DNA from: a virus
Length of the DNA: 64,000 nt
Direction: 5' to 3' (one strand)
IMG/VR virus record: IMGVR_UViG_3300035670_010029
Part shown: piece by piece, positions 4,572-58,050 of the stretch
Layout of the letters: each line of letters opens with the position of its first letter
Numbering within the stretch: the first letter of the stretch is position 1
The notes under the pieces: model-generated
Seen by the model: only the letters and a program-made list of their open reading frames with translations
Told to the model about the DNA's origin: nothing
The model's database searches: none
Program-made: the position numbers and the translations under genes

Positions 4572-4754
4572 ATGTCAATTAAAAAATTTTTTGATATACC
4601 AGTAGGAACCACTTTTACTCTTAATAATGTTGAATACGTAAAAGTTACAGAAGATAGAATTTCGTGCTGCAAGGTTTTGAATGCAGAAACCGTAACAGAA
4701 CCCAAAACTAAGATTCAGGTTATCCCTATTACAGAAGTTGAAGTTAAAGACTAA
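4572..4754 (+). CDS. small hypothetical protein (60 aa, beta-rich) inside the split dnaE locus
   Basis: AAGGAG SD at 4555-4560; stop overlaps the next start (TAATG). Confidence 0.7.
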   Translation: MSIKKFFDIPVGTTFTLNNVEYVKVTEDRISCCKVLNAETVTEPKTKIQVIPITEVEVKD

Positions 4755-40900: not shown

Positions 40901-43900
40901 AGCTAGACTTGTTCCTGTGCTAAAACCCATACTAGACAAGGCTTGCGCTGCTTGAGAAGCAACAAAACCTACTGTTTGAGCACCTTCGGTAATAGCAGCA
41001 GCGCTTTCTCCCATGCCCTGTCTTACAGACTCTACTCTAGCCGCATCCCCTACCTGAAGAGCGGTTTGTTCACCTGTCTGAATTGGTCCACTTCCAGCTA
41101 AGGCTTGACCTAACTCTACTGTACTATAAGCTCCTTGTACTAATGCTTGTTCGCCAACCTGAGCAAATGCTTGTCCTGCAGCTTGTCCTGATTCGCTACC
41201 AAGCAAATACGACCCTCCCTGTACAGCGCGACCAGCCACAGAGATACCAGCACCAGCTACCACATTAGCAGCCCCGTAAGCTGCTCTACCAGTAGCCTCT
41301 CCCACTCCTCCTAGCCATCCTAGTCCTGCTATTAGCGGATTTTTACTTTGTATCCATAATTTATTTTGTGCCGTTCCGCCATCTGCTAAGTAATTAACAA
41401 TACCGCCAGAAGACAAAGTGTTACTATTAATAGCTTTTAATAAAGGTAGATTTTTTTGAGTTGCTGATCTATTGACTACAAATTCTCCTGGCGTTAACAT
41501 AGCAGGAACAGTATCTGTCCCTCGTGGTTGAAAATTAACTAAGTTTGCTCCATTCTGAGCATATATTATTCCACCCATAGCCCTATTAACTGGTTCGGCC
41601 ACTGCTCCTCTACTGGCAAACCATGATAAGCTAGGTAGCGCACCGAATGCATTAGCAAAACCAAAAAACATATGTGCTTGCATAGCATCGTCATAATATT
41701 TTTGTCCATCATTAGCAAAAGACGCCGCAAAATTACTCATTCTGGCAGCGTTATCCGGTTGCGCCATAGCATCAAAGAAATAATCTTGACCCACCCAATT
41801 ACCTTTGCCTCCATACCAATTCATGAGTCTATATAATCCTTCTCTGATGAAACCTAATGTTATTTGATCAAAATATGGCATACCATTAGGACCACGTAAA
41901 TTAAACAAATCATCTCCAAATTTTTGTATTAATCCTGATCTAACTTTTGTTCCATTAAATTCATTATATGGATTAAATAATACCTTTACTAAATCATTAA
42001 CCGTAGCATTTTCTGGAATGGCACCCGCTAGGTTTGTTGGTGTTAGTGTGCCATCTCTACCAACTACTTTAATTTGGGTTCCTTGCAATTGGTTGCCTAA
42101 TATATTTTTCCAATCAGGACTTAATTGTAAACCAGCTACTTTGCCGGCTCTTGCTGACATGCCAAAACTACGAAAGACTCCAGCAATCGGCGCTTTAGCA
42201 TCATAGAATTGTTTTAATAAAGCGGTGTCTCCTCCAGCAATAGCACCAAAAGCGTTAGCAGCACCGCTGATCATAGTCATAATATTATCTAGAGCATTAT
42301 ATGATTGGATACTATTTGCTCTGTTTTGCAATTGAGAAACATACGTTCCGGCTTGATTCAAAATAGAGGACATATATTGAGAGGCTCCTTTAGGATTACC
42401 TCCTAAAGCTAACCTAATAGCCTGCGGAGCGCCAGCATTAGACAACCATCCAGCAGAGACACCGGGAAGTCTTAATCCTCCAAATAAAGCCATAGAACCC
42501 CTAATTAGAGCTGCTGTAGCCTGTGGCAGATCCGCATCGGTTAATACAGAACCTTTGGTTATTTTAGACTGATCCACCTTACCAGCAGATAGTGACATTT
42601 CTTGTTGAAACTGTGCTAGCTTATCTAGTACAAACTCGCCTATATTCACAGATAATGGCTGCTGGCTTATATCGGTAAATACATCTGCACCTGATGAGAT
42701 ACTACCTAAATATTTAGTTAAAGACGTACCCTGACCAAACGTTAGATTAAGTTGTGATGCTACTTTAGCTGCTTGTTGTTCAGCGTTGGGGTCTTTATTA
42801 ACTCTCATCTTTATTAGGTCTTGGAAATCCTGAAGTAGTTTTGGATCATTAATACTAGAAGCATTAATAATATCATTAGGTCCATATTGTTTGGCAGTAA
42901 ACAGTCTTCTTTGGGACTTGTCTAGTGTGTTAAACAGCGTGCCCACTATGTTATTTGGTAATAGGGTGTCTATTGTTCTATTTGGATCAAATTTACCAGT
43001 AGTCGCATCATAAAATTGACCCGTATATTTCTCATATGCTATAGGAACATCTATGGAAGGATTTTTGCCATTAATGGGTATTGGTAATGTTAATTTAATG
43101 TTGTCAGATATTAGGCTGCTAGATACCACGCCCTTGGCATTCAGAGTATTTTTTTTCGCCTCGTCCATAAACGTTTGACCAAGATAATCTTCTATGTTGC
43201 CATTGATCATAACTGGAAATGACTTAGAAATACGATTTATTTCATCTGTTAATACGAATGGCTTACCTAAATTAAATTCTGGATCAAATTTTGCCGGTGG
43301 GGCTCCTACCAATCCAAACTTAACTCTATCTCTTCTTGCTCTTTCTATATTAGCTTGTACCGACTCTATAGCTGTTCTAAACGACGGTTCTAATGATGGT
43401 TGAGCCACAACAGCACTACTCGCGCCTTGAGTAATAAGCTCGTCTAGTGGAGACAATTCAGAGCCAGTTAAAGAAATATATTGTTGTGTATTATTAAATA
43501 ATGCAGATAGCTTGTCTCCTAGTGCTTGACCAGATCCGTCATCCACGTAACCCAACCTGCCTTGTAAAAATTCTAGTGTGTTTTTATATAGCTCATAGTT
43601 TGGTTTATGATTTTTTGTATTAGCTTCGTCTATTTTAAATCCTGGTAAAATATGCTGCTGTTTCGTCATTGGCTCACTTACAAAAGACGGGGTTTGTCCA
43701 TTGTGTGGTTCCCAGCTTTCCGAACTCCATTCTGTGTCAGCATATGGACTACCAGTAACAAAAGACGGTTTGTTAACGGACACCGCCATTGCCATTCCAG
43801 GAGCCCAGCCGGCCGGATTGTAAAATGCTCTTTTATAATACCAAACTTTAAAAGCTTGACTTTTTTGTATTTGATCGGAGCTGGCCCCTATATAGGGTTT

Positions 43901-46900
43901 ATCAAAAGACACCCCATAACTTTTATCTACTAATGTAGATTCCCACTTATTGGGAGTAGGATCTGGAAAATCTGCTGTGGTTGGTGGTTTATCTCTATAT
44001 AAAGATTTATCTAGTATGCTTTCTGGTTTTGGTCCGCCATCTATACCAAGTAGCATAGTTTTAACTTTGTCTTGATATTCTTTTTCTTGGGCTTGAAAAA
44101 TTTGTTTACCGGTAAACGCACCAAGCCCTAAATACAAACTATTGTTATCTTTAACTTTTGCTAAACCACCACGAATCCTAGACGAAGCTTGTGCTGCAGC
44201 GTCGTTCTTTGCGTAATCATACTGATCCCTGCCTTGCTTCACTATTGTTGGCGTTGCGCCAACTCTCACCGAACCCATTGACTTGTCTATAATATTATCA
44301 GCATTTAGATCAAAAGAGGATGTAGGCAGTGCATTAGAAGCACCAAAAGATAATGTGTAACTATTTGGCAGATCATATATATTACTAGAACCTTTTTGCC
44401 ATATTTCTGCTGCAGAGTCTGTTGGTTCAATAATTGGTTTTTCAGTCAACATGCCTTGTTGTTTGATATTGTCTGGCTTTCCCCAGTTTGTGATTAATCC
44501 TCCAGCGTTATAATATCCGACACGGCCACCCGATTGTAAGCTGTTATTATTAATTTGTTGTAGTAATGGCAGGTGTTTTTGTGTCGCTGATCGATTAATA
44601 ACAAACTCGCCAGGAGTTAACATCGCCGGTACGGTATCTGTTCCTCTGGGCTGAAAGTTAACCAACTGACCCTCCGCAGCATAAACTAAACCTCCAGTAG
44701 CTATGCCGGCAACTGGTGGTACCGCTCCAGCTCCTCCTACTGGTGGTTTTGGTTGTTGAGCAATAGATACGAGGGTATTGATGTTTCGTCCAATATCGGA
44801 TAGCTCTCTATTTTGAAATGTTAAAATAGTATTGGTCAAACCATCTATAATAGCTTTGCTGTTTTTGGACGCAATATCGTTTGCCAAATTCTGATCAAGC
44901 TGTCCTAGTAATCTAGTAGCCGCTGATTGTTCCGCTATGGCCTGATTATAATATTGTATAGCTGCGGCAGTCGCTGGATCTTGTTCGGGATTTCTTAACG
45001 AGTTTAAAATTTGTTGAAACATCGGAGAGACCCCCATCCCCGACTCTTGTAGCATAGTTTCTAATACGTTAGCTCTTGTATTGTTGGCTTGTTGATTATC
45101 TCCTAAAAATGGCAAAATATCCTGTAGTGCTCCTAATGTGTCTTTTCGCTCATTAGCAAAAGCTGTTTGTGCTGCTCTCATTGCTTCCATTGCAGAAGCA
45201 CCATTATTAATTGCATCTTGATAAGCTTTTTGGGCTCCAATACTATTTTGTATAGTATTTTGTTGTCCATTCATATTTCTTTGTAGTCTATACAAAGATT
45301 GGTTTAAAGACTCTAGTTCATCGGGAGTGCTAGTAACTACTTTCTCTAAGAAACTTATTCTGCCAGTTGCTTTTTGTTGAGCTTCTTGCATAGCATTCAT
45401 AGCAGCACTAGCTTTTTCAGTATTATTAGCCATCTCTTCTAAAGCTGCTCTGTTTTCTCTTAGAGAAATATTAGTGGCTTTAAGATCATTGTTAAATCTA
45501 ACAAAATCTTGAACACCAGCTGGGCCTTTCTCTGCCGACTGCTGAACAGACGACTGTTGAATTTCTCTGGTTCTATTGAGTTTAAGGACGGCATTGAAAA
45601 TATCCGCTGGATCCGTGATTCCTCCTGTTTGTCTACCAACAGAAGCATTTCTTTTAGCAAAAACATCTGCTACAGATATTGTTCGATTTAATGTTTTTGA
45701 TAACTCTAACTGAGAGTCGGCCGTAATGTCTATAGACTTTCTGGATCGTTCTCTAGCACTAATTTCTAAATCAATAATTTTATTCAAGTTATTAGCATAC
45801 TGATTAAGAATATTTTGATAATTTTGTAAGGCTTTGATAGCCACAGACTGAGCATCTTTAGCTGTCTCTATAACAGAATTTAATCCAGCCAATTTTTCTG
45901 ATAATTGAGCAAAATCCACTTTATCATCGCCGGATTTTCTCAGATCTACCAATGTACTACCGACTTCTTTAGCTAGTTTATCTGCTAATTCTGGAGGCAA
46001 GCCTAAACCCTTAAGCTCAGCTCTTATGTTTTTATCAACGGCCCTAGCAATAACTTCGTTGGAAGAATCTGGTCCTTGGTTTTTTAGTGTATCATTAATT
46101 GTAGACATAACTGTATTTTCTACAGTCTCGCCTAAATTCATTAGTTGTTGCATCTCTGGCTGTCTATTACCAAACAATGATCCGGCTGAGGATTGAGCTG
46201 CTGATACTCGTCCTGCTCCGTATGATCTTGGATTTTCAATAATATTCGCAGATGCTAGATCTATATTTCCTACTTTTGCCTGGCCCTGCAAAGCCGCTGT
46301 TGTTAGATCTATATTTTCTGACATAGACTTAAGAGAGAATGCTGTTGCATTAATGGCCTGTTCCATATTAGTAAACATTCTTTTTAAAGAACGCGTATAT
46401 ACAGAAACCATAGCTCCTAAGTTTTTCTGATCTTTTTCTCTCTGAGCAACAGCTGCTGCTTGCCTGGTCTTATTAGCTCCCTCTATAGTAATTATTTCTT
46501 CTATTAGCTCTTTTTTTCTCTTCTCAGTTAAACCAGTACTGAGTTCTATCTGTCTTATTTGCTTATTAAGAGCCGTGTCTGCATAAACCAAAGATCTGGC
46601 AAAATCATCAAATTCTGCACTGCCTAAAATATCTCCTACGTTTTCTCCAGATTTAATACGAGCTTGGATTAGCTGATTAATACCTTCTGCTATTGGTTGA
46701 AAAGATTGACTAGATTCTTGTGCTTGAGCACCGACCATTTTACCAGCTTTAGCCTCGTATGTGTCCGCTCCGCCAAACAATGTACGAAAATATTCTATTG
46801 TTCCTTCTTTTTCTAAAACCTGAGATCTTACTGCTGCTTGACGAGAAGCCCCATTGCCTTGTATCGAAGAAAATAGAACATCCAATCCATTAATCCAACC

Positions 46901-49900
46901 AGCACTAGCGGTATCTAGAGTTCGTGTTCTAAGATTATCTGCTGATCTAGAGGCATCAATTAAATTTGACTGTATTGACTGTCTTAGATTGACTTGTGTC
47001 AAGTCTTGATTCAGCTTATCGAATTTTTCTGATATACCATTTAAAGCTTGTTCTATTTTATTTTTGGATAATTCTATATAAAATTGTCTCACTCCGTTAT
47101 AAGCATCAAGAGCAACTTGCCCCAAAATAGCAACCACCTGCACTGCCTTAGCGCCTCTCAATAATCTGGATGCAAAGCCTGCAAATCTACTATTTGTGTT
47201 GCGTAGGTTTTGTGTGAAATTATCTAGTTCACCGATAGCTGCTTGGGTATATGAAAAAGCTTGCGAACCTCCTCTAATACCACCAGAGATACCTGCTTCA
47301 ATAGCACTAGATTTAGCATTAATAGAATCGGCGATAATATTTCCAACGGTGATGACACCAAAAGATAGGGCTAAACTAGCCTGTCTATCAAAATTTCTCT
47401 GCTCATCTGGACCTCTTTCTCCTCTAGAAGCAGCCGCTTGTTCTATAGCTGTTCTGCGAGCCCTAATTTCTTCGTTTATGGCTCTAACTTGCTCTTGTGC
47501 TTGGTCTTGTGTAATTCTTCCGGCTCTTAATTCGGCATCAATAGTAGCTCTGCGTGTCTGGATATATCTTTGGTCCATTTGCTCTAGTGTTCGCGCATCT
47601 CTAGTAAGATTTTGTAATACTCGTGCTAGGTCATCTCCGGTAGCATTTAACGTACTAAGATCTATAGAGGTTCCTAATCCACCTCCCGTGGCTATGTCTT
47701 CATATGCAGTACGACTTCGTACTGCGGCTCCTGCTCTTAATTCTGCTTGTACTTCTTCTTCTGTTCTGGGCGATCCGCTAGTTCCTGGAGTAGTACGTAA
47801 AACATTTTCTTCTGCTTGTCTAAGAGCTTCTATTCTACCTTCTACAGCATCTAATGCGTCTTGAATAGCTTGTCCAGTAATATTTCCTAATCTTTGTTGT
47901 ATATCTAATTCTGCTTGTGCTGCTCTATTAGCGTTATTTATGGCTTGTTGTAGGTCATACAATGTTTCCGCACTTGCTCCAGCCGCACGAGCCATGTTAA
48001 AATCAGCTTCTGCAGCTCTTCTAGCTTCGGCAGCAGTGGCCTGATAGCTTCGATTTAATAATCTGGCAGATTCTGATCCACTGACACCTAGTTGTGTTAA
48101 TACGTCTGCTAGTTGAGTTAATGCTGTGGTAGCTAAAGTAGTAGCTCCTATAGTGTCTGCATTAATAACTTCTGGTCTAGCTGATGGCCCTCTGGATCTA
48201 CCGCCCAAAAAGAATCTTTCTACTCCAACAGCTCCGCCCCTATTTAAACCCAAAGCTTTTGTCGCTTTTTCTCTTATTACAAAACTACCAACTGGCAAAT
48301 TAGCTGGTATACTATCACTGGTACCTGTACCCGGACCCTTAAATACGCTAATACCGCCATCAGCAAATCGCCCCATACCATTACGATCAGCCTGATTCAT
48401 TTTATTTAATTTGCCATAACCAATTCTTTTAGCAAGCTTGGGTGGTACATAAGCTTCACCATTGCTTACTAGAGCCGGAACCGTGCCTCCGTCTGCTAAT
48501 CCTATAGCTTGTTCTTTGTAGTATCTATCAAATTCTCCACGGGCTTTTTCAAACGCACTCCCATTAAGTGTTCTTTTAATTTCTGTAGGAATATTATCTG
48601 GTAAGCCAAAGAATTGGGCAGCTCGTCCCAATCCTCCTGGAAAATCTATAGCCCTATTAGACTCTAAAGTTTCTATAGGAGGAAGATTAGCTCCTAAAAT
48701 AGCTAAAGCTTTTTCAATAACGGCACCCTCAATATTTCCTTGTCCCATCAGCTCATCTAATTCTGGTTTGGCTTGCGGCTCAGTATATAAGAAGCCAGAC
48801 TTTTTGCTTTTTTGAACAGCTCGTATATTATCTAAGCTATCATCAATTAATTTTTCTGTTTGTGCTAAATTTTGTGCTTTAGCTCTTGGTACTTTAACGC
48901 CTTCTCCTCCAACACCAGTAATGTCCGAGGCTTGGTAAGGTAATCCAAAGCTTTGTAAAGATTGAGCTAATAAGTCTACAGTACTAGCGGGTCTAGCGGT
49001 AAGTATTCGTGTGTTTTTAATAAACTCTGGATCAGCATCTATTAATGTTTTAAGTTTAGCACCCAAACGTGTAAGTCTACCCCCTTTTAGATATTCTTCA
49101 ACAACGGTTCTGTCTGAATATCTGGGAATGTCTGGCTTTCCTTCTTCGTTAAGAATATCGGTACCAGAAACTAAAGTTTCATCAAAATCAAAAACTAATT
49201 TTTCTTTACCTCCAAAAATTTTGGTATATTGTACATTTTCTGCAAAGTTTCTAGCAGCTAGTGCTGTTTCTCTGCTCATTTGTTGTGCGGCTGGTAGGTA
49301 TTCTTTGTCAAAACCTTTTATAGTGGCATAGATAGTTTTACTACTTTCTGGCAGGACCCATTCGTTGGTGTCACTGTAACCCATTGGCAATAAGCCGGCT
49401 ATTGCTACTTGTGTTAGACTAGCTATTCTTTTAGCTTCAGCCGCATCACTCTTGCCCGATACGAATAATGCTCTATTGACATAGTCTTTAGCTATTTCTA
49501 TCCCTTTATTTGCTTTAATATTATTAGCATTTAAAACAGATCGTGTTCGACTATCTCCGGCACCAATACCTAATATGGTTCGAACTCCGGCAGGTCCACC
49601 CAAACCCCTTAGTTGTTCTAGCAATGTTTCTTGAATACTTTGACCTTTGGTTTGAGCCAAAGCAGACACCCTGTCTCTGATTCTTGGTGCCTCTTTAACA
49701 GCTCCTGCTTCCGCAAATTTTTGAATCATACCGCCTAAAGAAAATCTTGGTTTGCCCTTTCGTTTTTTAATATCTTTTGCCCATTCGTACATCGAACCAA
49801 AACTATCGCCTTCTATGTCCTCAACAGCATCTTCGCTTAGATACTTGTCCATGTATGCTTTAGTCAATACCATACCATCAATAACCGTAGGCTTACCATC

Positions 49901-52900
49901 TTTGGTATAGCCCATGTTCGAACCACCAGCGTCGATCCAATGTAATCCTCGTTCAGCTAATTTACCCTGCAATAGCTCTGCATCTTTCATGCCTTTTTCT
50001 GTATCAGAGATTCTTACTTTGTCTTGTATTGCGGCTGTTAATTTACCAAAAGTCTTAACTTTTCTATATCCAGAAACATGCTCCATCCCTTCGGGAAGCT
50101 GATAATTACCAATCTCTTTAATTTGTTTTTTACGGAAGCCTACATCCTCAGCTATTTGCTGTATTCCAAATCCCGTGCGAGAAATTTTTAACACTTCGTT
50201 ACCTATATCAAAAGACACATTTTCTCCACCGGCTCCCAGTACTTTTGCTGACGAAACACCATATTCATTTTCTATTTGGGAAAGATACTTAGGTAATCCT
50301 TTAACGGCTAAAATTTCTGGCGTCACTTCTCCAAAAAAAGTTTTATTCGTAGTAGAATATGTCTGTAATGCTGCTAATAATTTAGAGACTGAAGAAACCT
50401 TGTCTGTGGATTTTTTAGCTTTTCCACCCACTTTATATTCCTGTCTTTTTATACCAGTACTACCCAATAATTCACTAAGCGTACTGTCTAAAACACTTTG
50501 TAGTTTACTATCAAGAACAGGAGCTTTTTGCACTAAAGTTGTTAAAAACTCTTCTTTTCCATTATCTTCTGTTCTGGTTATATGAGCTTGTTCGAAACCA
50601 GCCGATAATAATGTTTGATTCACACCGGGATTGATCGGTCTGTATTCTCTGGCTTTTTTAGCATCATCAGAAGCCTTGATATATGAAGCTAGTTCTTTTT
50701 CCATTTCTGGATTGCGCTTTTCTGGATTATCTCTTAGTCTAATGTTTTGTAGCTGAGCACTTTCCAAAAGACTTTGTTTATATTTGCGTCCATACACCAC
50801 GTCTGCACTAGTATATCCTCCGCCATTACCAGAAGATAAAGCATCAAAAGCATCTGCCAAACCATCATTGTCCGTATTGAATAGAAAATCAACTCTTTCC
50901 CTATATTTGGAAAAACTTTCTGCTGAACGAGCCCTTAAACCACTAAACAATTGGTGTGTTAATTCGTGATACAATACGTCTTGTCCTGGTTTATCAAAAG
51001 CTGTACCTAACGATATACTGCCTCGTCCGGTAGCTGACATTGTTTGCTTCTTAGACTCAACTGCGGCTTCTATTGCTCTGCGTTCTTTTCCTTTGATATC
51101 CGAAATTTTCTTTTGTAAAGTTTTTATTTCATCAAAAACGCTGACAAAAGCTTCTCTGTCGTATGAAAAAGACCCATCATCAAAAGTTTCAATAGGGGTT
51201 TTTAGAATTTTATTTTGTAATTTCTTTTTTTCTTCTACCAACTTCTCATAACCAAATAAGTCTTGTTTATCTTTGTCTGTGTATCCAAAAACGCTTAGGT
51301 CCCAACCTTCAGAGCCACGACTACCTAACGGAGAATCATTAAATAGTCCTCCTCCTATCACTTTTCTACCTATACTACCAGCGTTACCAAAATCTATCTG
51401 TGCCGGCAATGCAACGCTCAAATCTTCTTGTGGCAAACCTATAAATTTGGCAAAATCGCCTATACTTTTTAATAAAGAATCTCGTTTAACCTTACCTTTA
51501 AAAGAAGCCAAAAACGCCGCACGATCAAAAGGCTCAGTCATTCTGGACCCAACAGCTTGGTCGTCTATAGATATGCGTTCATCTGTAGGGACATTACTTG
51601 CTAGTTGTTTCCATTCGGCTGCTTGTTGTTCTTTTATTATTTGTTTAGCATACGCATTGGTTATGCGGCGTGGAAATTTTGTTTCTCCTGTGCCGAAAGA
51701 TTCCTGTGTTTGTTTAACTCCACCAGGTGATCCTGTCATAAATTTTTGAATGAATCCACCAACAAATTTTTCGTTAACTACCTGTTGTTCTGGATTCTGT
51801 GTTCTTTTCTTTTGCAAGAAGTTGAGGACTTCGTCAAAAGACCCACTATAAATGACCTCAGATGCCCCTTTGTCTCCGTGCTCAAACACATCATACCATG
51901 TTCGTTTAGCATTAGCGCTGTCATAAAATGATTTGTTTTCAGCCCATGTATATTGTGATTTGCCGCCTTCAGCAAAAGCTTTAATTTGACCACCTTTGAT
52001 AAAACCTGGTGTTTTCTGTTGTTGTTGCTTATTAATAAAATCATAAAACTGTTTTTTGGTATCGCCAGCCCAGTAATAGTCCAGGGTTCCTATATTAACG
52101 TCGTCGATTTTAGGCGCAGGAAGGTTTTCTTTAAAATATCTATTAACGCTTTTTTTCTCTATACGATATCTTAATAATTTGCTAATCAAATCAGCATCAT
52201 CTGTTTTTGTAGTTCTAAATTTGACTTCACCTATTCTGCTTATAGCATTGTTCTTAAGTCGTTTAAGTATATCAACAGGATAGTTGGTTTTATCGCTGGC
52301 TTTCTCCCATTGGCCAGACAGTTTTTCTATGAGCAATTGTTCATATGCTAAACCCCAACGACCTTCTGCACTTTGTAAACGACTAATAGAATCTGATGTT
52401 TGTTGTCCATAAGATTGTTTAATTTGTTTTTGTTCTGATCGATTTTTACCAGATAGCTCTCTCAATATATCTCGGTTCTTTTGACTAATATCTATACCGG
52501 CATAGCTCTTATAGTGTCCTGAACCTTGTGCTGCTTGATTTTCTGCTGTATTCCATATTTTTAGAAAATCTTGATCCTCTAATTTAACTGTTTTCGGTTT
52601 TATTTTGATAGAGACTTTATCGTCTGCTTCTAAATTGGTTGAACCTATGGCTTTAGCAATAGCTGCTGCGCCTGATCTGTTTAATAGATCGGAGACTAAT
52701 ACAGGTCCTCCGTCAGCATATCTGTTCATCCTAACCAAATTTCCCCTACCATACTTATTAACAGCTCGTTTATTGACGACAAATTCTCCAGGAGTCAACA
52801 TAGCTGGTACACTGTCTGCGTTACCAGATCCTGGTACTATTCCTCCTCTGGCAAATCCGTATATACGACCTCCGTCTTGTGCTCTTCTAGTTCCTCTAAA

Positions 52901-54427
52901 ACCCCCACCAAAACCACCAGCAAATTGTGTTAAAGCACTAACCCCCCTAAAAGCTGCCATAATACCGATTAAAGGTAAAACACCTTTGGTAGCATCAGCA
53001 ATTTTGATTAGAGCGCTTGCAAGATCAAGACCCAATCTAACCATTGTTTTAAAGCCATCACTATCACCTACGCTTCTCACTAAAGCTGTAAATTCTTCTC
53101 TAACTTTTTGTATTTGAACAGCTAACGCTAGTTGACCTTTGGCCGCGTCTGTAGCTAATGATCCTTGTCCTTGTTGAGCTACCTTAAGAGCATCTTGAGC
53201 AGTGGCGAATTGTTGGATAAGAGGAAGTACTTTACCAATCTGACGGAAACCACCAAGCTCTTCAACTATTTGAGAGAACTTTAAGTCTCTAGGATCCAAT
53301 CTGCCTAATCCTTCGGCCAATCTTTGAACAGCAACATAAGGCCCAACGAATTTACCCTCTAGATCAGTTAATTGAACACCATACTCTTTAAGAGCTTCTA
53401 TAGTGTCGCCTCTTTGTATTCTGGTAAATATTGTTCTCAAACCAGTAGCAATAGTTTCTGCACTTTCGCGAGTAGTAGCTCTAATACTAGTAAACACAGC
53501 CAAAAATTCGTTTAAGGCATCGGTGCCTGAACTAACTCCTCTACTAGCAGAAGCAAACACGCCACCAGTACGCTGTATAGCAGCAATAAGGTCGCTAGCT
53601 TCTACTGCAAACCCAGCCGCTACAGCATTGATACTACCTAAAGCCCCTTCTAGTTGATTGGCACTAATACCAAACTGTCTCATCAAAGCAATAGAACCTT
53701 CTACTGTTTGATTAAGATTATCAAAAGATGGAGCTAATGCACTTTTAGCTAAGGCTTCTAGTGCTTTTCTGGTATCTCCCGCAGTAAAACCTGCCTGAGC
53801 TAGCGTTACCGATACTTGAGCCAAATCTTCTGACGCAACACCCATAGATGTAGATAATCTGGTAATCTCAGATGTCATACTACTCAAACTGGCTTTGCTT
53901 TCATTTGTTACCTGACTCAAACGAGTAATCTGACGATCAAATTCTATATATTGTTTTATACCGGCACTTAACGCATTACTAAATCCGTATATAACAGATG
54001 TCACAGCACTAAAGGCCGCAAATCTTCTTACGGCTAACCCAGCTTGTCTTCCGAAGTCTTCAAACTCGGTACGCGTTCTTGATACGGCCGCACTAGCGTT
54101 ATTAGCACTAGAAGCCAACCTTACCATGGGAGCTTGTACTGTTTGCGGTAAATTAACATTACCAACCGATCTCATCGCAGCTGCCAAATTAGTAAAAGCT
54201 TGCGCTGCGGAGGTTGTTGACGATGTGGTTGCAGCTAGCGTGGTATTAAGAGTCCCAAGACTAGTATTAACTTGTCTGATTGATCCTAAAGTTGTTCTAT
54301 TTATATTCAGATTAACATTAGCATTAATAGAACCAAGTTGTCTACGAATATTATTTACTATGGGACGAATATTGGTCGGCCCCCTAAGATTAATTTCTGC
54401 GGTTAAGCTGAATCCTCTTGCTGCCAT
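37916..54427 (-). CDS. giant tape measure protein (5503 aa) with embedded enzymatic domains
   Basis: N-terminal TP901-type TMP core (FDRQITRLSQVT...LAQAG...GTGLRTI-like ATGLRTIFTRI); long Ala/Gln helical regions; six PAMLTPGEFV-type modules; located after tube and chaperone genes; AGGAG SD. Confidence 0.92.
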   Translation of the reverse strand: MAARGFSLTAEINLRGPTNIRPIVNNIRRQLGSINANVNLNINRTTLGSIRQVNTSLGTLNTTLAATTSSTTSAAQAFTNLAAAMRSVGNVNLPQTVQAPMVRLASSANNASAAVSRTRTEFEDFGRQAGLAVRRFAAFSAVTSVIYGFSNALSAGIKQYIEFDRQITRLSQVTNESKASLSSMTSEITRLSTSMGVASEDLAQVSVTLAQAGFTAGDTRKALEALAKSALAPSFDNLNQTVEGSIALMRQFGISANQLEGALGSINAVAAGFAVEASDLIAAIQRTGGVFASASRGVSSGTDALNEFLAVFTSIRATTRESAETIATGLRTIFTRIQRGDTIEALKEYGVQLTDLEGKFVGPYVAVQRLAEGLGRLDPRDLKFSQIVEELGGFRQIGKVLPLIQQFATAQDALKVAQQGQGSLATDAAKGQLALAVQIQKVREEFTALVRSVGDSDGFKTMVRLGLDLASALIKIADATKGVLPLIGIMAAFRGVSALTQFAGGFGGGFRGTRRAQDGGRIYGFARGGIVPGSGNADSVPAMLTPGEFVVNKRAVNKYGRGNLVRMNRYADGGPVLVSDLLNRSGAAAIAKAIGSTNLEADDKVSIKIKPKTVKLEDQDFLKIWNTAENQAAQGSGHYKSYAGIDISQKNRDILRELSGKNRSEQKQIKQSYGQQTSDSISRLQSAEGRWGLAYEQLLIEKLSGQWEKASDKTNYPVDILKRLKNNAISRIGEVKFRTTKTDDADLISKLLRYRIEKKSVNRYFKENLPAPKIDDVNIGTLDYYWAGDTKKQFYDFINKQQQQKTPGFIKGGQIKAFAEGGKSQYTWAENKSFYDSANAKRTWYDVFEHGDKGASEVIYSGSFDEVLNFLQKKRTQNPEQQVVNEKFVGGFIQKFMTGSPGGVKQTQESFGTGETKFPRRITNAYAKQIIKEQQAAEWKQLASNVPTDERISIDDQAVGSRMTEPFDRAAFLASFKGKVKRDSLLKSIGDFAKFIGLPQEDLSVALPAQIDFGNAGSIGRKVIGGGLFNDSPLGSRGSEGWDLSVFGYTDKDKQDLFGYEKLVEEKKKLQNKILKTPIETFDDGSFSYDREAFVSVFDEIKTLQKKISDIKGKERRAIEAAVESKKQTMSATGRGSISLGTAFDKPGQDVLYHELTHQLFSGLRARSAESFSKYRERVDFLFNTDNDGLADAFDALSSGNGGGYTSADVVYGRKYKQSLLESAQLQNIRLRDNPEKRNPEMEKELASYIKASDDAKKAREYRPINPGVNQTLLSAGFEQAHITRTEDNGKEEFLTTLVQKAPVLDSKLQSVLDSTLSELLGSTGIKRQEYKVGGKAKKSTDKVSSVSKLLAALQTYSTTNKTFFGEVTPEILAVKGLPKYLSQIENEYGVSSAKVLGAGGENVSFDIGNEVLKISRTGFGIQQIAEDVGFRKKQIKEIGNYQLPEGMEHVSGYRKVKTFGKLTAAIQDKVRISDTEKGMKDAELLQGKLAERGLHWIDAGGSNMGYTKDGKPTVIDGMVLTKAYMDKYLSEDAVEDIEGDSFGSMYEWAKDIKKRKGKPRFSLGGMIQKFAEAGAVKEAPRIRDRVSALAQTKGQSIQETLLEQLRGLGGPAGVRTILGIGAGDSRTRSVLNANNIKANKGIEIAKDYVNRALFVSGKSDAAEAKRIASLTQVAIAGLLPMGYSDTNEWVLPESSKTIYATIKGFDKEYLPAAQQMSRETALAARNFAENVQYTKIFGGKEKLVFDFDETLVSGTDILNEEGKPDIPRYSDRTVVEEYLKGGRLTRLGAKLKTLIDADPEFIKNTRILTARPASTVDLLAQSLQSFGLPYQASDITGVGGEGVKVPRAKAQNLAQTEKLIDDSLDNIRAVQKSKKSGFLYTEPQAKPELDELMGQGNIEGAVIEKALAILGANLPPIETLESNRAIDFPGGLGRAAQFFGLPDNIPTEIKRTLNGSAFEKARGEFDRYYKEQAIGLADGGTVPALVSNGEAYVPPKLAKRIGYGKLNKMNQADRNGMGRFADGGISVFKGPGTGTSDSIPANLPVGSFVIREKATKALGLNRGGAVGVERFFLGGRSRGPSARPEVINADTIGATTLATTALTQLADVLTQLGVSGSESARLLNRSYQATAAEARRAAEADFNMARAAGASAETLYDLQQAINNANRAAQAELDIQQRLGNITGQAIQDALDAVEGRIEALRQAEENVLRTTPGTSGSPRTEEEVQAELRAGAAVRSRTAYEDIATGGGLGTSIDLSTLNATGDDLARVLQNLTRDARTLEQMDQRYIQTRRATIDAELRAGRITQDQAQEQVRAINEEIRARRTAIEQAAASRGERGPDEQRNFDRQASLALSFGVITVGNIIADSINAKSSAIEAGISGGIRGGSQAFSYTQAAIGELDNFTQNLRNTNSRFAGFASRLLRGAKAVQVVAILGQVALDAYNGVRQFYIELSKNKIEQALNGISEKFDKLNQDLTQVNLRQSIQSNLIDASRSADNLRTRTLDTASAGWINGLDVLFSSIQGNGASRQAAVRSQVLEKEGTIEYFRTLFGGADTYEAKAGKMVGAQAQESSQSFQPIAEGINQLIQARIKSGENVGDILGSAEFDDFARSLVYADTALNKQIRQIELSTGLTEKRKKELIEEIITIEGANKTRQAAAVAQREKDQKNLGAMVSVYTRSLKRMFTNMEQAINATAFSLKSMSENIDLTTAALQGQAKVGNIDLASANIIENPRSYGAGRVSAAQSSAGSLFGNRQPEMQQLMNLGETVENTVMSTINDTLKNQGPDSSNEVIARAVDKNIRAELKGLGLPPELADKLAKEVGSTLVDLRKSGDDKVDFAQLSEKLAGLNSVIETAKDAQSVAIKALQNYQNILNQYANNLNKIIDLEISARERSRKSIDITADSQLELSKTLNRTISVADVFAKRNASVGRQTGGITDPADIFNAVLKLNRTREIQQSSVQQSAEKGPAGVQDFVRFNNDLKATNISLRENRAALEEMANNTEKASAAMNAMQEAQQKATGRISFLEKVVTSTPDELESLNQSLYRLQRNMNGQQNTIQNSIGAQKAYQDAINNGASAMEAMRAAQTAFANERKDTLGALQDILPFLGDNQQANNTRANVLETMLQESGMGVSPMFQQILNSLRNPEQDPATAAAIQYYNQAIAEQSAATRLLGQLDQNLANDIASKNSKAIIDGLTNTILTFQNRELSDIGRNINTLVSIAQQPKPPVGGAGAVPPVAGIATGGLVYAAEGQLVNFQPRGTDTVPAMLTPGEFVINRSATQKHLPLLQQINNNSLQSGGRVGYYNAGGLITNWGKPDNIKQQGMLTEKPIIEPTDSAAEIWQKGSSNIYDLPNSYTLSFGASNALPTSSFDLNADNIIDKSMGSVRVGATPTIVKQGRDQYDYAKNDAAAQASSRIRGGLAKVKDNNSLYLGLGAFTGKQIFQAQEKEYQDKVKTMLLGIDGGPKPESILDKSLYRDKPPTTADFPDPTPNKWESTLVDKSYGVSFDKPYIGASSDQIQKSQAFKVWYYKRAFYNPAGWAPGMAMAVSVNKPSFVTGSPYADTEWSSESWEPHNGQTPSFVSEPMTKQQHILPGFKIDEANTKNHKPNYELYKNTLEFLQGRLGYVDDGSGQALGDKLSALFNNTQQYISLTGSELSPLDELITQGASSAVVAQPSLEPSFRTAIESVQANIERARRDRVKFGLVGAPPAKFDPEFNLGKPFVLTDEINRISKSFPVMINGNIEDYLGQTFMDEAKKNTLNAKGVVSSSLISDNIKLTLPIPINGKNPSIDVPIAYEKYTGQFYDATTGKFDPNRTIDTLLPNNIVGTLFNTLDKSQRRLFTAKQYGPNDIINASSINDPKLLQDFQDLIKMRVNKDPNAEQQAAKVASQLNLTFGQGTSLTKYLGSISSGADVFTDISQQPLSVNIGEFVLDKLAQFQQEMSLSAGKVDQSKITKGSVLTDADLPQATAALIRGSMALFGGLRLPGVSAGWLSNAGAPQAIRLALGGNPKGASQYMSSILNQAGTYVSQLQNRANSIQSYNALDNIMTMISGAANAFGAIAGGDTALLKQFYDAKAPIAGVFRSFGMSARAGKVAGLQLSPDWKNILGNQLQGTQIKVVGRDGTLTPTNLAGAIPENATVNDLVKVLFNPYNEFNGTKVRSGLIQKFGDDLFNLRGPNGMPYFDQITLGFIREGLYRLMNWYGGKGNWVGQDYFFDAMAQPDNAARMSNFAASFANDGQKYYDDAMQAHMFFGFANAFGALPSLSWFASRGAVAEPVNRAMGGIIYAQNGANLVNFQPRGTDTVPAMLTPGEFVVNRSATQKNLPLLKAINSNTLSSGGIVNYLADGGTAQNKLWIQSKNPLIAGLGWLGGVGEATGRAAYGAANVVAGAGISVAGRAVQGGSYLLGSESGQAAGQAFAQVGEQALVQGAYSTVELGQALAGSGPIQTGEQTALQVGDAARVESVRQGMGESAAAITEGAQTVGFVASQAAQALSSMGFSTGTSLAGKGAQALSVVDRLSDVGSMVSGAQKLPLIGNVVKGISSLGTNITPSIAKTIIAAGEAMPTFKSWLNNLGEGANKLGFVIDNLDIFAEAAVNPQTAKILEDAPSFGDAIKQLRPNRNAGTKTATQTVSVPNKADDVTDSASLATKASDNSDIIKLPKAQRLLVEDRLNQFKAMVQDAQSNRINAYIDNVEKELEFGIDSIDNFIRNNTATQKAYQDAISSGVSDSDALKAILYKDSGIEEFTDKAMKQGWSVDLGPPLKVSRNDDVIEGIISKDMESDTVWQQTRTKALADAEQGLSKEGRRALSKGIDDPSIKFEDRSWFDWTRNKTKNILGGRKKYIVGALALGGIYAATQLANQNTKPVSKTPDNINPPSPDNPIINKPEQANNDAAMQKIAMGAPPVMNPEELPIADGELPNYYDELTYKEWLNNLIKNGSAPQPPIKNLFKTPALYVKEKSLSFQDNKFVEKNESGRFTAFDERDGGSIVAGSVEKNKKLLLNAQTLEQKKLAQNARNNAGLGRGSYKSFGGLVNYLSEGGKPRQYLGVDSDQGGMPWPGSESSSPATIPETTTNDTFNDASGLPSIVNRDGSPLRTIEEGDRSTRAIFAAKGIESQFKSAYNYYQRKLGEYNYYNTKNDSMRSKWLASFDKKNKAKPKPKPDQVLGDIPDTVYASEGMLVPYQPRGTDTIPAMLTPGEFVVNRQATQSHLPLLHKINSGAYNKGGAVSYLSEGTKETKEEKVERLKAEREKIKAERIAAATAKRQAEQARQDAIRSRSEERGSEVLKERLAKSPQAKAREIANQRGKALEISREQGISPQVAMRQLVAGAAPVAAQRQAPAQAAMPQISPQTQQRVSQAAQAAFDPSNAGNVNKQLTIFGTLLTGVNQVMTQFGAIMQQIVAGGGVNNGVQANGVGGLDGLGQFTAKFDQFITQLSKLNLPPEINVNGNHKVEVVVNGAQALQELLDGPLSGLIRREVQSAFSRLNAESEGSIPDPTKQ
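38718..52885 (-). repeat. six dispersed GG..(GTD)xxPAMLTPGEFV modules in the TMP
   Basis: Copies at about 52750-52885, 48441-48502 (PALVSNGEAY), 48263-48370 (GTSDSIPANLPVGSFV), 44549-44707, 41375-41585 and 38718-38902. The last three share QPRGTDTxPAMLTPGEFVxNRxATQxxLPLLxxIN. Confidence 0.9.
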
Positions 54428-54513: not shown

Positions 54514-55398
54514 TTATGTAGTGCTGGTTGTTGCTTCGGTAGCAGCTGTAGCTTCATTGGTAACTGGTGCTTCATTAGTGGTCTCAACTGTTTTTGCTTC
54601 CTCTTCTAAAACTACTGGCCGACCATGATCATCTAAGAACGGCTGTGTCTCAACGAGATATTCTCCATCCTCGTCAACCCTATTACCGTCTTTATCAACA
54701 TACTCACCTGCCTCATTAATATACCTACCGTCTTTATCTACTAATCTGCCTTCACTATCAATTGTTCTGCCCTGTTTGTCAATAAATCTTAAATCATCAT
54801 TAACAAACTTATATTTTTTCAAGAACTTATTTTCTGGTAAATTTTTCTCAAAATTATTATCCAAGCCATAAATCATATTTGCTAACTTTTGCGCACCAGC
54901 CAAGGCTACAGGATCATCAATGCGATTCATATAGTCTTCAAGGTTAGCAAAATACGCTTTATCGCTATCTTTATACACCACACATACCGATACCAAATAA
55001 TTAAACCTAGCATTATCAGCTTGGCCTTCAGCGCTATGATTGTCTAAAGATGTCCTAACACTAATTAGCTCTCGTATTTTATTTCGTACATCTCGCATCT
55101 TTATGGCCAGTTTTTTAGCTTCTGATAAAGCAAAACCACCCTTAGCTAAACGTCGCTCTCCGTCTAAAAGTTCTTGTTGCAGAGTGGTGTATTCGGCCTG
55201 TTTTCCTGCGTTCCATAATCCTTGATCTTCTAATAGATCGTCCATTTTGGCTCGTACCACACTTTTGCTTTTTATAGCATCAGTGAAAGCCTGATTATAA
55301 ACTTTCTGAGCTTCTCTTTGATCGTGTAATGTTGGGGTTCTAACCATAAAAGTTTTTTCTTCCCCGTTGATTGTAACCTTAAAGTCCTGAGTTTTCAT
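54514..55398 (-). CDS. putative tail assembly chaperone with C-terminal 7-aa D-x-x-G repeats
   Basis: Immediately upstream of the TMP; helical; IDKQGRT-IDSEGRL-VDKDGRY-INEAGEY-VDKDGNR-VDEDGEY. Confidence 0.6.
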   Translation of the reverse strand: MKTQDFKVTINGEEKTFMVRTPTLHDQREAQKVYNQAFTDAIKSKSVVRAKMDDLLEDQGLWNAGKQAEYTTLQQELLDGERRLAKGGFALSEAKKLAIKMRDVRNKIRELISVRTSLDNHSAEGQADNARFNYLVSVCVVYKDSDKAYFANLEDYMNRIDDPVALAGAQKLANMIYGLDNNFEKNLPENKFLKKYKFVNDDLRFIDKQGRTIDSEGRLVDKDGRYINEAGEYVDKDGNRVDEDGEYLVETQPFLDDHGRPVVLEEEAKTVETTNEAPVTNEATAATEATTSTT

Positions 55399-55451
55399 AG
55401 TATAAAACCTTTCTGATTTTCTTGGTAATGTAAATAGTGAAAATAATAATA

Positions 55452-55760
55452 TTATTTATTGTTTGATCCACGAGGTTTGCCAAAATTATAACTGTAAGAT
55501 TTGTGACAACCAGGACCCCACTTATCAAAATCTTCCTTGAGCTGTCTAATCTGAGTATTACCCTGATTAAGAATTTGATTACGTGTAAAATCCCATATAT
55601 TAGCAAATTTTTCTTCTTCTGCAGTCAAGGGTATACTTTCGTCTTTGTCTAGACCCCAAAGAAAACCAAGATTGTCCTCTACTCTAGCTAATGCCCCTAT
55701 CATAGTTGTTTGTATTCTTTTTTCTACAAAATATCGTAGTCTGTCCAGATTTTCTTGCAT
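55452..55760 (-). CDS. hypothetical helical protein (tail assembly region)
   Basis: 102-aa ORF with AGGAAGG upstream, between the tube and TMP genes. Confidence 0.6.
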   Translation of the reverse strand: MQENLDRLRYFVEKRIQTTMIGALARVEDNLGFLWGLDKDESIPLTAEEEKFANIWDFTRNQILNQGNTQIRQLKEDFDKWGPGCHKSYSYNFGKPRGSNNK

Positions 55761-55782
55761 AATAAATGATCCTTCCTATTAA

Positions 55783-56823
55783 TTATTTTTTATTTAGTTC
55801 CATTAATCTTTGTTTGATTTCTCTCTGTACGTCCGGTAACTCGTGCTCTTTTAATGCTCTATCGCTATTAAAAACAGCCTGAGTCTTTTCTTGAATGCGC
55901 TGAGTACTTTCCGCAGAATTAAGAGACAAAATGTGTTCTTTTTGCTCTTGGTCCTTCGCCAACAAAAATATTTCGCGTGAATTTTTTACTTTATCACTCA
56001 ATATATTATCTACACCCTTTTGTTGTTTTTGCTTTTTATTTTCTTCCTGCTGTTGAAGCATCCAACCATCTAGCGCATCATCATCTTCTATAATATCGGA
56101 ATCGGGACAATCCGGATGTTCATATATTCGATCATACATAATACTGGTATTAAGTAGTGCTCTTTGTTCTTCTGAAAGTTCTATAGCAGAACACCCGAAT
56201 ACATCTTGTTTATTTGTGTGATAATAATTTCTCCAATAATCACTACGAGCTATTTTTTTATATTGACTAATATCTATTACATTATCAGCTATAGTTTGCA
56301 TAAGACCATTAAAAAAATCATAATCAATATTTTTATGATCAGAAAAAACGATATTTTCTGTATCTCTATAAAATAAAGAATTCAATATAATGTATTGGTT
56401 TTTAATGTTTTCACAATAATTTTCTAAAGTCAAAAAATCTAAACTGTGCTGAGTCTGATAAGCGGAGGACAGCTGTGTTTTAACAGAAGCAACGGTTTGT
56501 TTAATTTTTTTTCGTTTAGTTAAATCCGTCCAATTTTTAAATAGATCTATTTTTGCGGTATTAAGTTTTTTTTCAGTGTTTTCAAGATCTTTTTTGAATA
56601 GGGGAGTTGTTATTCCGTATTCTATCAAAAGATTGGGTATATCTTCTTCAAAAAGAAAATTATTAAATAAATTATCTTCGTACGTTGTCCGATATATATC
56701 GTCAGCCATTCTTTTTAGCTTTAAAGATGGCTTGTGTAGATGATAATACGTATCTTTGTAAAAGAAAAACTGGTCCCCAGACATGATTCTGTGGACCAGA
56801 AATTCTATATCCTTATTATTCAC
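55783..56823 (-). CDS. putative tail assembly chaperone (paralog of 54514-55398)
   Basis: N-terminal half aligns by eye with 54514-55398; C-terminal YDRIYEHPDCP...IIEDDDALDGW. Confidence 0.55.
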   Translation of the reverse strand: MNNKDIEFLVHRIMSGDQFFFYKDTYYHLHKPSLKLKRMADDIYRTTYEDNLFNNFLFEEDIPNLLIEYGITTPLFKKDLENTEKKLNTAKIDLFKNWTDLTKRKKIKQTVASVKTQLSSAYQTQHSLDFLTLENYCENIKNQYIILNSLFYRDTENIVFSDHKNIDYDFFNGLMQTIADNVIDISQYKKIARSDYWRNYYHTNKQDVFGCSAIELSEEQRALLNTSIMYDRIYEHPDCPDSDIIEDDDALDGWMLQQQEENKKQKQQKGVDNILSDKVKNSREIFLLAKDQEQKEHILSLNSAESTQRIQEKTQAVFNSDRALKEHELPDVQREIKQRLMELNKK

Positions 56824-56824
56824 A

Positions 56825-56974
56825 TTATTCTGAAGATTGTGAAATTATTGATTGTTGTAAGCTAGCTATTTCTTTGTCTTTATTTTCTATTTGCTTTTGT
56901 AATTCAGCAATAGCCTTTTGAGACTGAACGATATCTAGATACATTTTACCTATAATACTAAACACTTCATCCAT
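56825..56974 (-). CDS. 49-aa coiled-coil protein missing from the ORF track
   Basis: AGGAGG-6 nt-ATG; MDEVFSIIGKMYLDIVQSQKAIAELQKQIENKDKEIASLQQSIISQSSE*; stop lies 1 nt before the next start. Confidence 0.8.
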   Translation of the reverse strand: MDEVFSIIGKMYLDIVQSQKAIAELQKQIENKDKEIASLQQSIISQSSE

Positions 56975-57019
56975 TTTTGTCCTCCTGGAAAAATTCTTTA
57001 ATTACTAAAACGAATTAGC

Positions 57020-58027
57020 TTATGATGGATTTGTTTCAACCACATCAGTGTAAGCTAAAGCTCCATCATTAGCCAATAAGGTTGAGTCTGGAGCAGTATA
57101 GCAGAAGTCGTTGAATGTCTGATAACTATATGTTACTTCAGCATTACCACCACCAGTGTCTCCACCGGTATAATTAACACTTGTAAGCTTATTCTTAGTG
57201 CCAAGATCTATTACGGTGCCATCGCACAATTTGATAACGATGGTCTGATCAGTAAGAGCTTTTGGGTTATTGCAAGCAGCGTCTGTACTGCCGGCAACTC
57301 CAACCTGATCTCCGTTAGTTGCTGTTTTGGTAATTTCTGTGGTGATTTCTACAGGGAAATTAACATAACGCAAATAGGGCGTTCTACGACCTAACTGACG
57401 AAGTTCTTCTCGTCCAAGATTCATACTGACGGTAATATTGGTGACACCACCCAAGCCTCCTGGAATAGTACTTGTTGCGTCGAATAGGGCTCGACGCAAG
57501 ATACCAACACCTTCTGGACTTGCAAGAGCAGGAGCGTTAGTTGCACCAGCTGCAGCCGATACCCATGTTTTGTCATTACTAACCAAGGTCACTTCTTCTG
57601 TAAAATTACCTTCTGTTGGGAAAGTGTATGTTACAGAACTAAGGTATGCTGGGACACATTCGACCTGAGCCACAGGTACTGTTGTAGCATTTGCCGATAC
57701 GTTATCCGGGAAGATAGAAAGCTTCACACCGCATCTGTTATTGGCTAAAGCACTCAGGCATCCTGTGCCCATAGCCATAGCGTAAATAGTTGGCTGACCA
57801 TCTAAAACCTTATTGAGAGTTACTTCAACTTCTGGAATTTCTTCATAATTATCATACAAAGACAATTGTCCCATTTGATAAATAGGCTCAAGATTGAAGT
57901 TGGTGTTCATACCAACGCTCTGTAGGCCCTGAACGGTGTCCCAAGCTGTACTACCAGTTCCGGTTGTACCCGATGGTCCGTTAAGTTGAACGCTTTGGCA
58001 GGCATAATAAATACGATTATTGGACAT
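57020..58027 (-). CDS. major tail tube protein
   Basis: GGAG SD; Thr/Gly/Val-rich beta protein; E.I.Q.G tube-like motif present twice; sits between completion genes and chaperone/TMP. Confidence 0.75.
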   Translation of the reverse strand: MSNNRIYYACQSVQLNGPSGTTGTGSTAWDTVQGLQSVGMNTNFNLEPIYQMGQLSLYDNYEEIPEVEVTLNKVLDGQPTIYAMAMGTGCLSALANNRCGVKLSIFPDNVSANATTVPVAQVECVPAYLSSVTYTFPTEGNFTEEVTLVSNDKTWVSAAAGATNAPALASPEGVGILRRALFDATSTIPGGLGGVTNITVSMNLGREELRQLGRRTPYLRYVNFPVEITTEITKTATNGDQVGVAGSTDAACNNPKALTDQTIVIKLCDGTVIDLGTKNKLTSVNYTGGDTGGGNAEVTYSYQTFNDFCYTAPDSTLLANDGALAYTDVVETNPS

Positions 58028-58050
58028 GTGTTAGGTCTCCAGATTAATGG

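Follow-up and report, generated by a model that had tools for sequence, protein, structure and literature searches.

Small kinases embedded in large phage proteins have been described before. Iyer et al. (2017) recognized a monophyletic kinase group within the 'polyvalent proteins' of phages and plasmids, members of which have lost the whole C-terminal subdomain while keeping the active-site residues, and which carry a Glu on the N-terminal side of strand 2, a conserved Gln in the N-lobe's final strand and an insert that separates the catalytic His from the catalytic Asp (PMC5512222). These kinases occur both embedded and as stand-alone proteins, mainly in the phages and prophages of the Verrucomicrobia-Chlamydia group and of Bacteroidetes, and it was proposed that they act on host proteins in the manner of the T7 kinase after being injected with the DNA, the metallopeptidases of polyvalent proteins being thought to cut these into their component parts (PMC5512222). 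Here we describe a segment of comparable architecture in a 64,000-nucleotide stretch of viral DNA (IMG/VR record IMGVR_UViG_3300035670_010029), the whole of which is referred to below as the window. The segment lies within a giant phage tail tape measure protein (TMP), and it is predicted to fold as a minimal protein-kinase-like (PKL) domain.

Other kinases with which the segment can be compared include gp0.7 of phage T7 (PF27024), which is likewise a phage-encoded PKL kinase and serves host takeover, and which is an early-expressed free protein of ~360 amino acids with a host shut-off C-terminal part rather than a portion of a virion protein. RIO1 (1zp9), TkArkI (7vnx) and Shigella OspG (4q5h) resemble the segment in their size (169-258 amino acids) and in doing without an activation loop, and all three keep helix alphaC and its Glu. 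TMPs have been described as being ejected from the tail lumen, and one suggestion is that the globular portions of these proteins conform to the lumen and regain their fold afterwards (PMC13277306). Enzyme modules that act at infection are already known inside such proteins, as in SPbeta YomI and in the TMP of mycobacteriophage TM4, for which an embedded peptidoglycan hydrolase motif is on record (Piuri & Hatfull 2006, as cited in PMC13277306). The known embedded activities attack the cell wall, outside the cytoplasm, whereas a kinase requires ATP and therefore requires cytoplasmic delivery. Literature searches turned up no account of a TMP that contains a kinase, which is not proof that none exists, and the comment in a first-pass annotation of this DNA that such a placement is unusual is consistent with this outcome. 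That injected phage polyproteins can include minimal kinases is, as a general idea, on record since 2017 (PMC5512222). What is new here, judging from the sequences, is that a predicted minimal effector-type kinase from a family invisible to current profiles is placed in a TMP.

The candidate domain was initially noticed as a series of short motifs (a Gly-rich loop, a VLK lysine, a catalytic loop and a DFG-equivalent), all of which are present in the order originally described and in one reading frame on the minus strand, no strand having been named at the time (Table 1). The span then proposed, 49750-50415, does contain these motifs, but both flanking double-Gly motifs that were said to bound it lie just beyond its ends, and the in-frame domain extends from 49730 to 50437. 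Counted from the Gly loop, the stretch through VIDG measures 123 residues, and that as far as the Mg-binding Asp measures 119, or fewer in the relative P0006. On the basis of the evidence described below, we consider it probable that residues 1331-1566 constitute a self-contained minimal PKL domain that conducts ATP-Mg phosphotransfer to a host target and that travels as a tail-delivered passenger cassette.

When 1.84 billion representative proteins were searched exhaustively with HMMER, homologues were revealed that extend across the whole cassette segment, with E values down to 1e-92. After enlargement by further searches, the family includes 11 giant tape measure clusters (that of the window among them), two gene fragments and four stand-alone proteins. 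The giant relatives are 3,613-6,682 amino acids long and are encoded on contigs of 85-197 kb, and the stand-alone members comprise 213-265 amino acids on short phage-like contigs, one of which also carries a phage PHROG gene. A profile hidden Markov model (HMM) of the family recovers 20 domain copies. The alignment on which our conservation counts are based holds 19 copies from the 11 giants, one fragment and the four stand-alone phage proteins, the near-duplicate fragment P0002 having been left out. Three other candidates (P0007, P0009 and P0010), repetitive proteins that had matched only over short pieces in 4-10 stretches, were not recovered by the family HMM and were rejected as spurious.

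Pairwise identity among the aligned copies ranges from 22 to 94%, with a mean of 40%, and invariance is confined to ten columns: G1400, K1414, V1451, Y1454, G1461, Q1468, G1494, D1499, N1504 and D1517 (G70, K84, V121, Y124, G131, Q138, G164, D169, N174 and D187 in domain numbering, to which 1330 is added to obtain the position in the protein). The Lys, catalytic Asp, Asn and Mg-binding Asp that the first-pass annotation had singled out make up four of these ten columns, and for this reason the motif pattern is not a product of chance; the conservation on which that proposal depended is thus complete in all 19 copies. The catalytic residues are spaced as D-x4-N-x12-D, which equals the spacing of D166, N171 and D184 in protein kinase A, and the Mg-binding motif takes the form (I/L)-D-(G/A). 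Other features are more relaxed. Within the Gly-rich loop only the second Gly (G1400) is invariant, and the loop follows the pattern (G/D/A)-x-G-x-(E/S/A)-(S/N) in place of the canonical GxGxxG, while the equivalent of the HRD His is variously H, Y, T, I, E or G. A Glu just before strand 2 (E1402) is present in 15 of the 19 copies. The N-terminal helical extension that precedes the first strand contains the near-invariant residues L20, L43 and G60 (domain numbering), and the same helices appear in the model of a stand-alone member, P0011.

A structural model of the cassette was built by AlphaFold2 with a six-sequence alignment, and it has a predicted local distance difference test (pLDDT) score of 76.5 and a predicted template modelling score of 0.74, with pLDDT values of 85-95 in the core (domain residues 41-200). 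Following the three N-terminal helices, the modelled N-lobe consists of strand beta1 (65-69), the Gly loop, beta2 (74-77) and beta3 (81-87), which holds the Lys, and then of short helices (92-98 and 103-109) and beta4-beta5 (125-139), which holds Q138. A long helix (147-162) comes next, after which D169, N174 and D187 are located on short strands, and the final ~45 residues are poorly modelled. Overall, the N-lobe is five-stranded and the C-lobe is almost wholly missing, such that the model includes neither an activation loop nor a substrate-binding C-lobe.

Searches with this model found kinases in every library. Foldseek returned 148 matches in the Protein Data Bank (PDB) at E<1e-3, and all of those listed are protein-kinase-like, including ULK2, ROCK2, TkArkI, WbdD, Rio2 and MEK1. 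When the model was compared by VIA-align with 48,161 representative chains, the best 50 were all kinases with Z scores of 6.6-8.2 (PKR 8.2, Wee1 8.0, Rio1 7.9, TkArkI 7.1 and OspG 7.0), and in a second look 954 of 998 chains had Z of at least 5, with only kinases among the matches listed. The kinase SteC (8JBI) does not figure in the best 50 of either VIA-align list, an absence that does not rule it out. The BFVD collection yielded 94 matches at E<1e-3, again with only kinases among those listed and with T7-type phage protein kinases in the lead. Likewise, the family-named rows returned from the ESM Atlas are all kinases (T7 kinase, Pkinase and Kdo/APH/RIO), with a T7-kinase cluster in row 2, and the nearest named clusters by ESM features are Kinase-PolyVal (0.91, taken as a lead only) and T7-kinase. 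A second model, that of P0011 (29% identity; pLDDT 67.6), has the same topology and again has only kinases in its match lists. The proposal of a minimal PKL domain within a TMP is therefore supported both by the predicted fold and by residue conservation.

The protein that carries the cassette is a phage tail tape measure protein. In addition to its PhageMin_Tail core (Table 1), its first ~600 residues match several tape measure PHROGs (phrog_28 at E 1.1e-26, as well as 4211, 167 and 1533), and its N-terminal 600 residues match YomI of the SPbeta group at ~25% identity. The core family, PF10145, is present in all of the giant relatives (3,613-6,682 amino acids).

Within these giants, the kinase behaves as a movable unit. 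In most relatives its start lies at residue 743-886; in the window it is found at ~1330, in P0020 at 1688, and in P0016 at both 1436 and 2207. The two copies in P0016 are separate (residues 1436-1669 and 2207-2442), whereas the two in P0005 are in tandem (residues 849-1314; L004:5545-6915), and every one of these duplicated copies keeps the Lys, Asp, Asn and Asp of the active site. The order of modules also differs between proteins: HExxH, kinase and HAD follow one another in the window; in P0019 the kinase is followed ~500 residues later by HAD and HExxH; in P0020 HExxH comes directly after the kinase; and in P0004 and P0018 the kinase stands ~800 residues ahead of HExxH. Comparison of the window TMP with P0014 (6,061 amino acids) reveals 94% identity in the kinase and HAD modules and only 61% in the N-terminal core, a mosaic that points to the exchange of cassettes between tape measures and that suggests, from the sequences compared, a recent event. 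A linker of the form xxGGx(V/I)Q(K/R)FxxGG is found on both sides of the cassette in nearly all of the giants (borders in P0004-P0021), a sequence at which recombination or cleavage could take place or which could have a structural role.

An obligate pairing of kinase and HAD modules was considered and rejected. The two are adjacent only in the window, other sequence separates them in P0014, P0019, P0021 and P0005, and BLAST did not detect the HAD module in six further giants that carry the kinase. Given that this adjacency is not kept, we regard the kinase as an autonomous passenger rather than as an obligate partner of the HAD module, and the existence of stand-alone versions argues that the domain folds and functions alone. 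The cassettes on either side of it were noted as well. The downstream cassette (48503-49729, minus strand) includes a HAD-type DxDxT motif and has a sub-threshold match to HAD subfamily IIIB acid phosphatase (E 0.064), and the upstream cassette (50438-51790, minus strand) has a sub-threshold match to the putative Zn peptidase family DUF5700 (E 0.16). Like the kinase, these neighbours appear from their sequences to be too divergent for existing profiles.

Sequence comparisons by themselves give little indication of what the domain is. When the segment and a longer 436-residue piece were scanned with Pfam, PHROG and NCBIfam, no kinase was detected (for the segment, even at E 10) and only sub-threshold noise was obtained, namely matches to HTH_19 (E 0.013) and portal_PBSX (E 0.056), and a phmmer search of the segment against the PDB gave nothing meaningful. 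The sole PDB match of a six-sequence profile (A1) is an aldolase (E 0.013) aligned over the Gly-loop region, which we regard as chance. With a ten-sequence profile (A2), the best PDB sequence match is the Yersinia kinase YopO, which is weak and non-significant (E 0.07), and the alignment places the family pattern ...D....N...IDG on HNDIKPGN...IDLG of YopO. No relative of the cassette was found by tblastn in 50,697 phage records (GenBank/INPHARED). Scanning IMG/VR with the single cassette sequence recovered nothing, and scanning it with the family alignment recovered one locus (L007). Given that the family is invisible to current profile libraries, a new profile is needed for its detection.

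Several observations weigh against our interpretation of the domain as an active, tail-delivered kinase. A profile search was the check recommended in the first-pass annotation, and it comes out negative: hmmscan of six family members, run singly against Pfam at E<=10, detects no kinase family at all, be it Pkinase (PF00069), RIO1 (PF01163), APH (PF01636), Kdo (PF06293), Phage_T7_kinase (PF27024) or Kinase-PolyVal (PF18762). A six-frame search of a complete 197-kb relative (G001) with the PF18762 HMM (cut-off 27 bits) also gives no match. The alphaC Glu is not conserved, there being no conserved acidic column between beta3 and beta4. This region is an insert found in some tape measure copies only and is deleted in P0006, P0008 and P0011-13, and helix alphaC is wholly absent from P0006 and the stand-alone members, a loss that is rare in active kinases. 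Moreover, Ser/Thr protein kinases typically have a Lys at D+2 in the catalytic loop, and this residue is missing here. Structural Z scores of about 8 are middling in absolute terms, and the weight of this evidence comes instead from the uniformity of the matches and from their agreement with the conserved residues. That the Lys, Asp, Asn and Asp cluster in space is something we infer from the topology of the model and from residue spacing. Finally, a folded domain of ~25 kDa would be a tight fit for the lumen of a tail tube, and its delivery and refolding are matters of pure inference.

Among described systems, the Kinase-PolyVal family (PF18762) offers several parallels. In both cases the C-terminal subdomain is lost and the residues for ATP binding and phosphotransfer are kept, a Glu stands before strand 2 (E1402) and a Gln is located in the last N-lobe strand (Q1468, in all 19 copies). 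In both cases, too, the kinases reside inside giant multi-enzyme phage proteins that are presumed to be injected, they also exist as stand-alone phage genes, and they are accompanied by HExxH metallopeptidase-like modules. However, the PF18762 HMM matches neither the six members (E<=10) nor the 197-kb relative, the insert between His and Asp is unrecognizable because the His is not conserved in our family, and the carrier is a TMP (PF10145), whereas the term 'tape measure' has no occurrence in the polyvalent-protein study (PMC5512222). Given the failure of the HMM and an insert that cannot be scored, we describe the domain as one that would work like a polyvalent-protein kinase rather than as a demonstrated member of that family.

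Similar mixtures of likeness and difference are seen with the other kinases. Those resembling T7 gp0.7 are the top structural matches in BFVD (E 1.4e-6 to 1e-5), but they share no detectable sequence similarity with the cassette, and their template modelling scores are only ~0.36-0.48. Rio1 can be aligned over 165 residues that include the N-terminal helices, at 18% identity, and OspG aligns with a root-mean-square deviation of 3.9 over 136 residues. Neither these two nor TkArkI has a sequence-profile match to the cassette, and their structural scores tie with those of ordinary eukaryotic kinases such as PKR and Wee1, and thus no single family can be named as the closest.

We envisage the following sequence of events for a phage of ~160-200 kb whose TMP carries several enzyme cassettes as passengers between repeated double-Gly linkers, the kinase among them. 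The TMP would reside in the tail lumen and be expelled, as infection begins, into the envelope and cytoplasm of the host, and the kinase would thereby reach the host ahead of the DNA, ready-made. After ejection, the cassette may refold and may be cut free at the double-Gly linkers, whereupon it would use host ATP to phosphorylate a host target. Most likely, the domain binds ATP-Mg and passes the gamma-phosphate to this target, for which a protein would be the likeliest identity.

The nature of the target is where an alternative deserves attention. An active PKL phosphotransferase could instead modify a small molecule, lipid, sugar or RNA, for which the aminoglycoside, Kdo/WaaP and WbdD kinases and the tRNA kinase TkArkI provide precedents, and an envelope precursor, a nucleotide signal or a host RNA can be imagined as its target. 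The D-x-x-x-x-N loop is without the D+2 Lys of Ser/Thr kinases, as are those of RIO, APH and Kdo kinases, and therefore the substrate may not be a protein. The lack of an activation loop and of a substrate-binding C-lobe is in keeping with this idea, as are the structural matches to TkArkI, WbdD, APH and Rio that tie with those to protein kinases, and the HAD-type DxDxT motif of the adjoining cassette, the Pfam match of which is weak. We judge a non-protein substrate to be unlikely, however, given that protein kinases, T7-type phage kinases included, head the structural matches in every library, that effector kinases devoid of a C-lobe such as OspG act on proteins, and that the proximity to HAD is not conserved in relatives.

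Less plausible again is a kinase fold that has no catalytic function, in which case a pseudokinase or nucleotide binder would serve the tail, for example by acting as spacer or plug, by providing an assembly checkpoint or by binding host proteins. Such a role would suit a domain that is placed within a structural protein, that has no alphaC Glu and that in some members is without helix alphaC altogether, and TMPs are known to tolerate large insertions (PMC13277306). Against this, pseudokinases typically lose at least one of the four active-site residues, all of which are invariant in our 19 copies down to 22% identity, and stand-alone versions of the domain exist apart from tail proteins. The notion that the motifs match by chance within a non-globular TMP linker that holds no domain would accord with the failure of the Pfam, NCBIfam, PHROG and PDB sequence searches, but we consider it refuted by homology over the whole segment, by the confidently modelled core, by structural matches that are uniformly kinases and by the invariance of the motif residues. 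Our preference accordingly remains with an active kinase directed at a host target, most likely a protein.

Table 1. Positions in the window of the kinase cassette, its motifs and the tape measure protein that carries it
Feature	Position	Strand	Remarks
Kinase cassette, residues 1331-1566, linker to linker	49730-50437	minus	Homologues cover the whole segment
Upstream linker YKVGG, residues 1331-1335	50423-50437	minus	
N-terminal helical extension, ~residues 1348-1390, three helices before beta1	50258-50386	minus	DSSP helices 19-30, 38-43 and 48-59
Gly-rich loop VLGAGGENVSF, residues 1396-1406, beta1-loop-beta2	50210-50242	minus	G1400 invariant
VLK, residues 1412-1414	50186-50194	minus	
Lys1414, predicted ATP-phosphate-binding Lys, beta3	50186-50188	minus	19/19; model strand 81-87
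Gln1468, last N-lobe strand, family signature	50024-50026	minus	19/19; model strand 133-139
HWIDAGGSN, residues 1496-1504	49916-49942	minus	
Catalytic loop D1499-x4-N1504 (DAGGSN)	49916-49933	minus	D and N 19/19
VIDG, residues 1515-1518	49874-49885	minus	
I-D1517-G, DFG-equivalent with predicted Mg-binding Asp, 13 residues past Asn	49874-49882	minus	D 19/19; I and G 18/19
FSLGG, residues 1562-1566	49730-49744	minus	
Downstream double-Gly linker FSLGGMIQKFAEAG	49703-49744	minus	Same linker after the cassette in most giant relatives
Tape measure protein gene, 5,503 amino acids, hosts the kinase cassette	37916-54427	minus	Single uninterrupted open reading frame
PhageMin_Tail (PF10145) core, residues 187-391	53255-53869	minus	Pfam match, E 2.3e-23
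Five-copy motif sites in the tape measure protein	residues ~509-549, 2035-2060, 3245-3275, 4285-4315, 5176-5237	minus	

Other features of the TMP and its surroundings were also recorded. Five copies of the motif GG...(T/S)D(T/S)(V/I)PAMLTPGEFV(V/I)N(K/R), which match phrog_35029 and phrog_25241, are dispersed along the protein, and from its sequence this giant looks like several tape-measure-end units arranged in series. The order of the genes for proteins of 346, 102 and 294 amino acids, the TMP and a protein of ~1,500 amino acids recurs in two relatives (L004 and L005). Most large genes around the TMP (16999-37904 and 54514-59013, both on the minus strand) have no family match. A PHROG scan of the neighbouring genes, among them those for products of 1539, 520, 506, 346, 335, 320, 294 and 102 amino acids, gave no matches except for a 793-residue protein encoded upstream (60208-62589), which matches tail-fibre and baseplate PHROGs, and the products of 2653, 1733 and 335 amino acids have no Pfam match. 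The window contains no tRNA genes. Elsewhere, two open reading frames on the plus strand, at 2695-4566 and 5446-7089, share the DNA polymerase III alpha subunit between them, one half carrying PHP and NTPase domains and the other the finger, HHH and OB domains, with a 229-codon frame (4754-5443) between them. A plus-strand block (1655-2698 and 7624-10424) includes a gene for a PD-(D/E)XK nuclease (PF12705, E 3e-18) and two genes for group-1 glycosyltransferases.

A broader and distinctly more speculative proposal, which we offer only tentatively, is that a lineage of phages of ~160-200 kb has turned its TMP of 3,600-6,700 residues into a reconfigurable polyprotein for effector delivery, whose cassettes (kinase, HAD-like, HExxH and others) would be swapped, duplicated and reordered by recombination at the double-Gly linkers and, on infection, set free inside the host. 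In that case the kinase would represent a new branch of minimal PKL domains that lacks alphaC and is still catalytic.

Should the domain prove active, TMPs of the siphophage type would be able to carry enzymes that act in the cytoplasm, in addition to cell-wall hydrolases, and the tail lumen would be a route by which pre-made effectors for host takeover or anti-defence enter before phage genes are expressed. An active kinase of ~190 residues that does without the alphaC Glu, and in some members without helix alphaC itself, would also be a new minimum for a functional kinase core. The shuffled, linker-bounded cassettes may in addition offer a natural system in which the packing of folded enzymes into a tail tube, and their release from it, can be studied.

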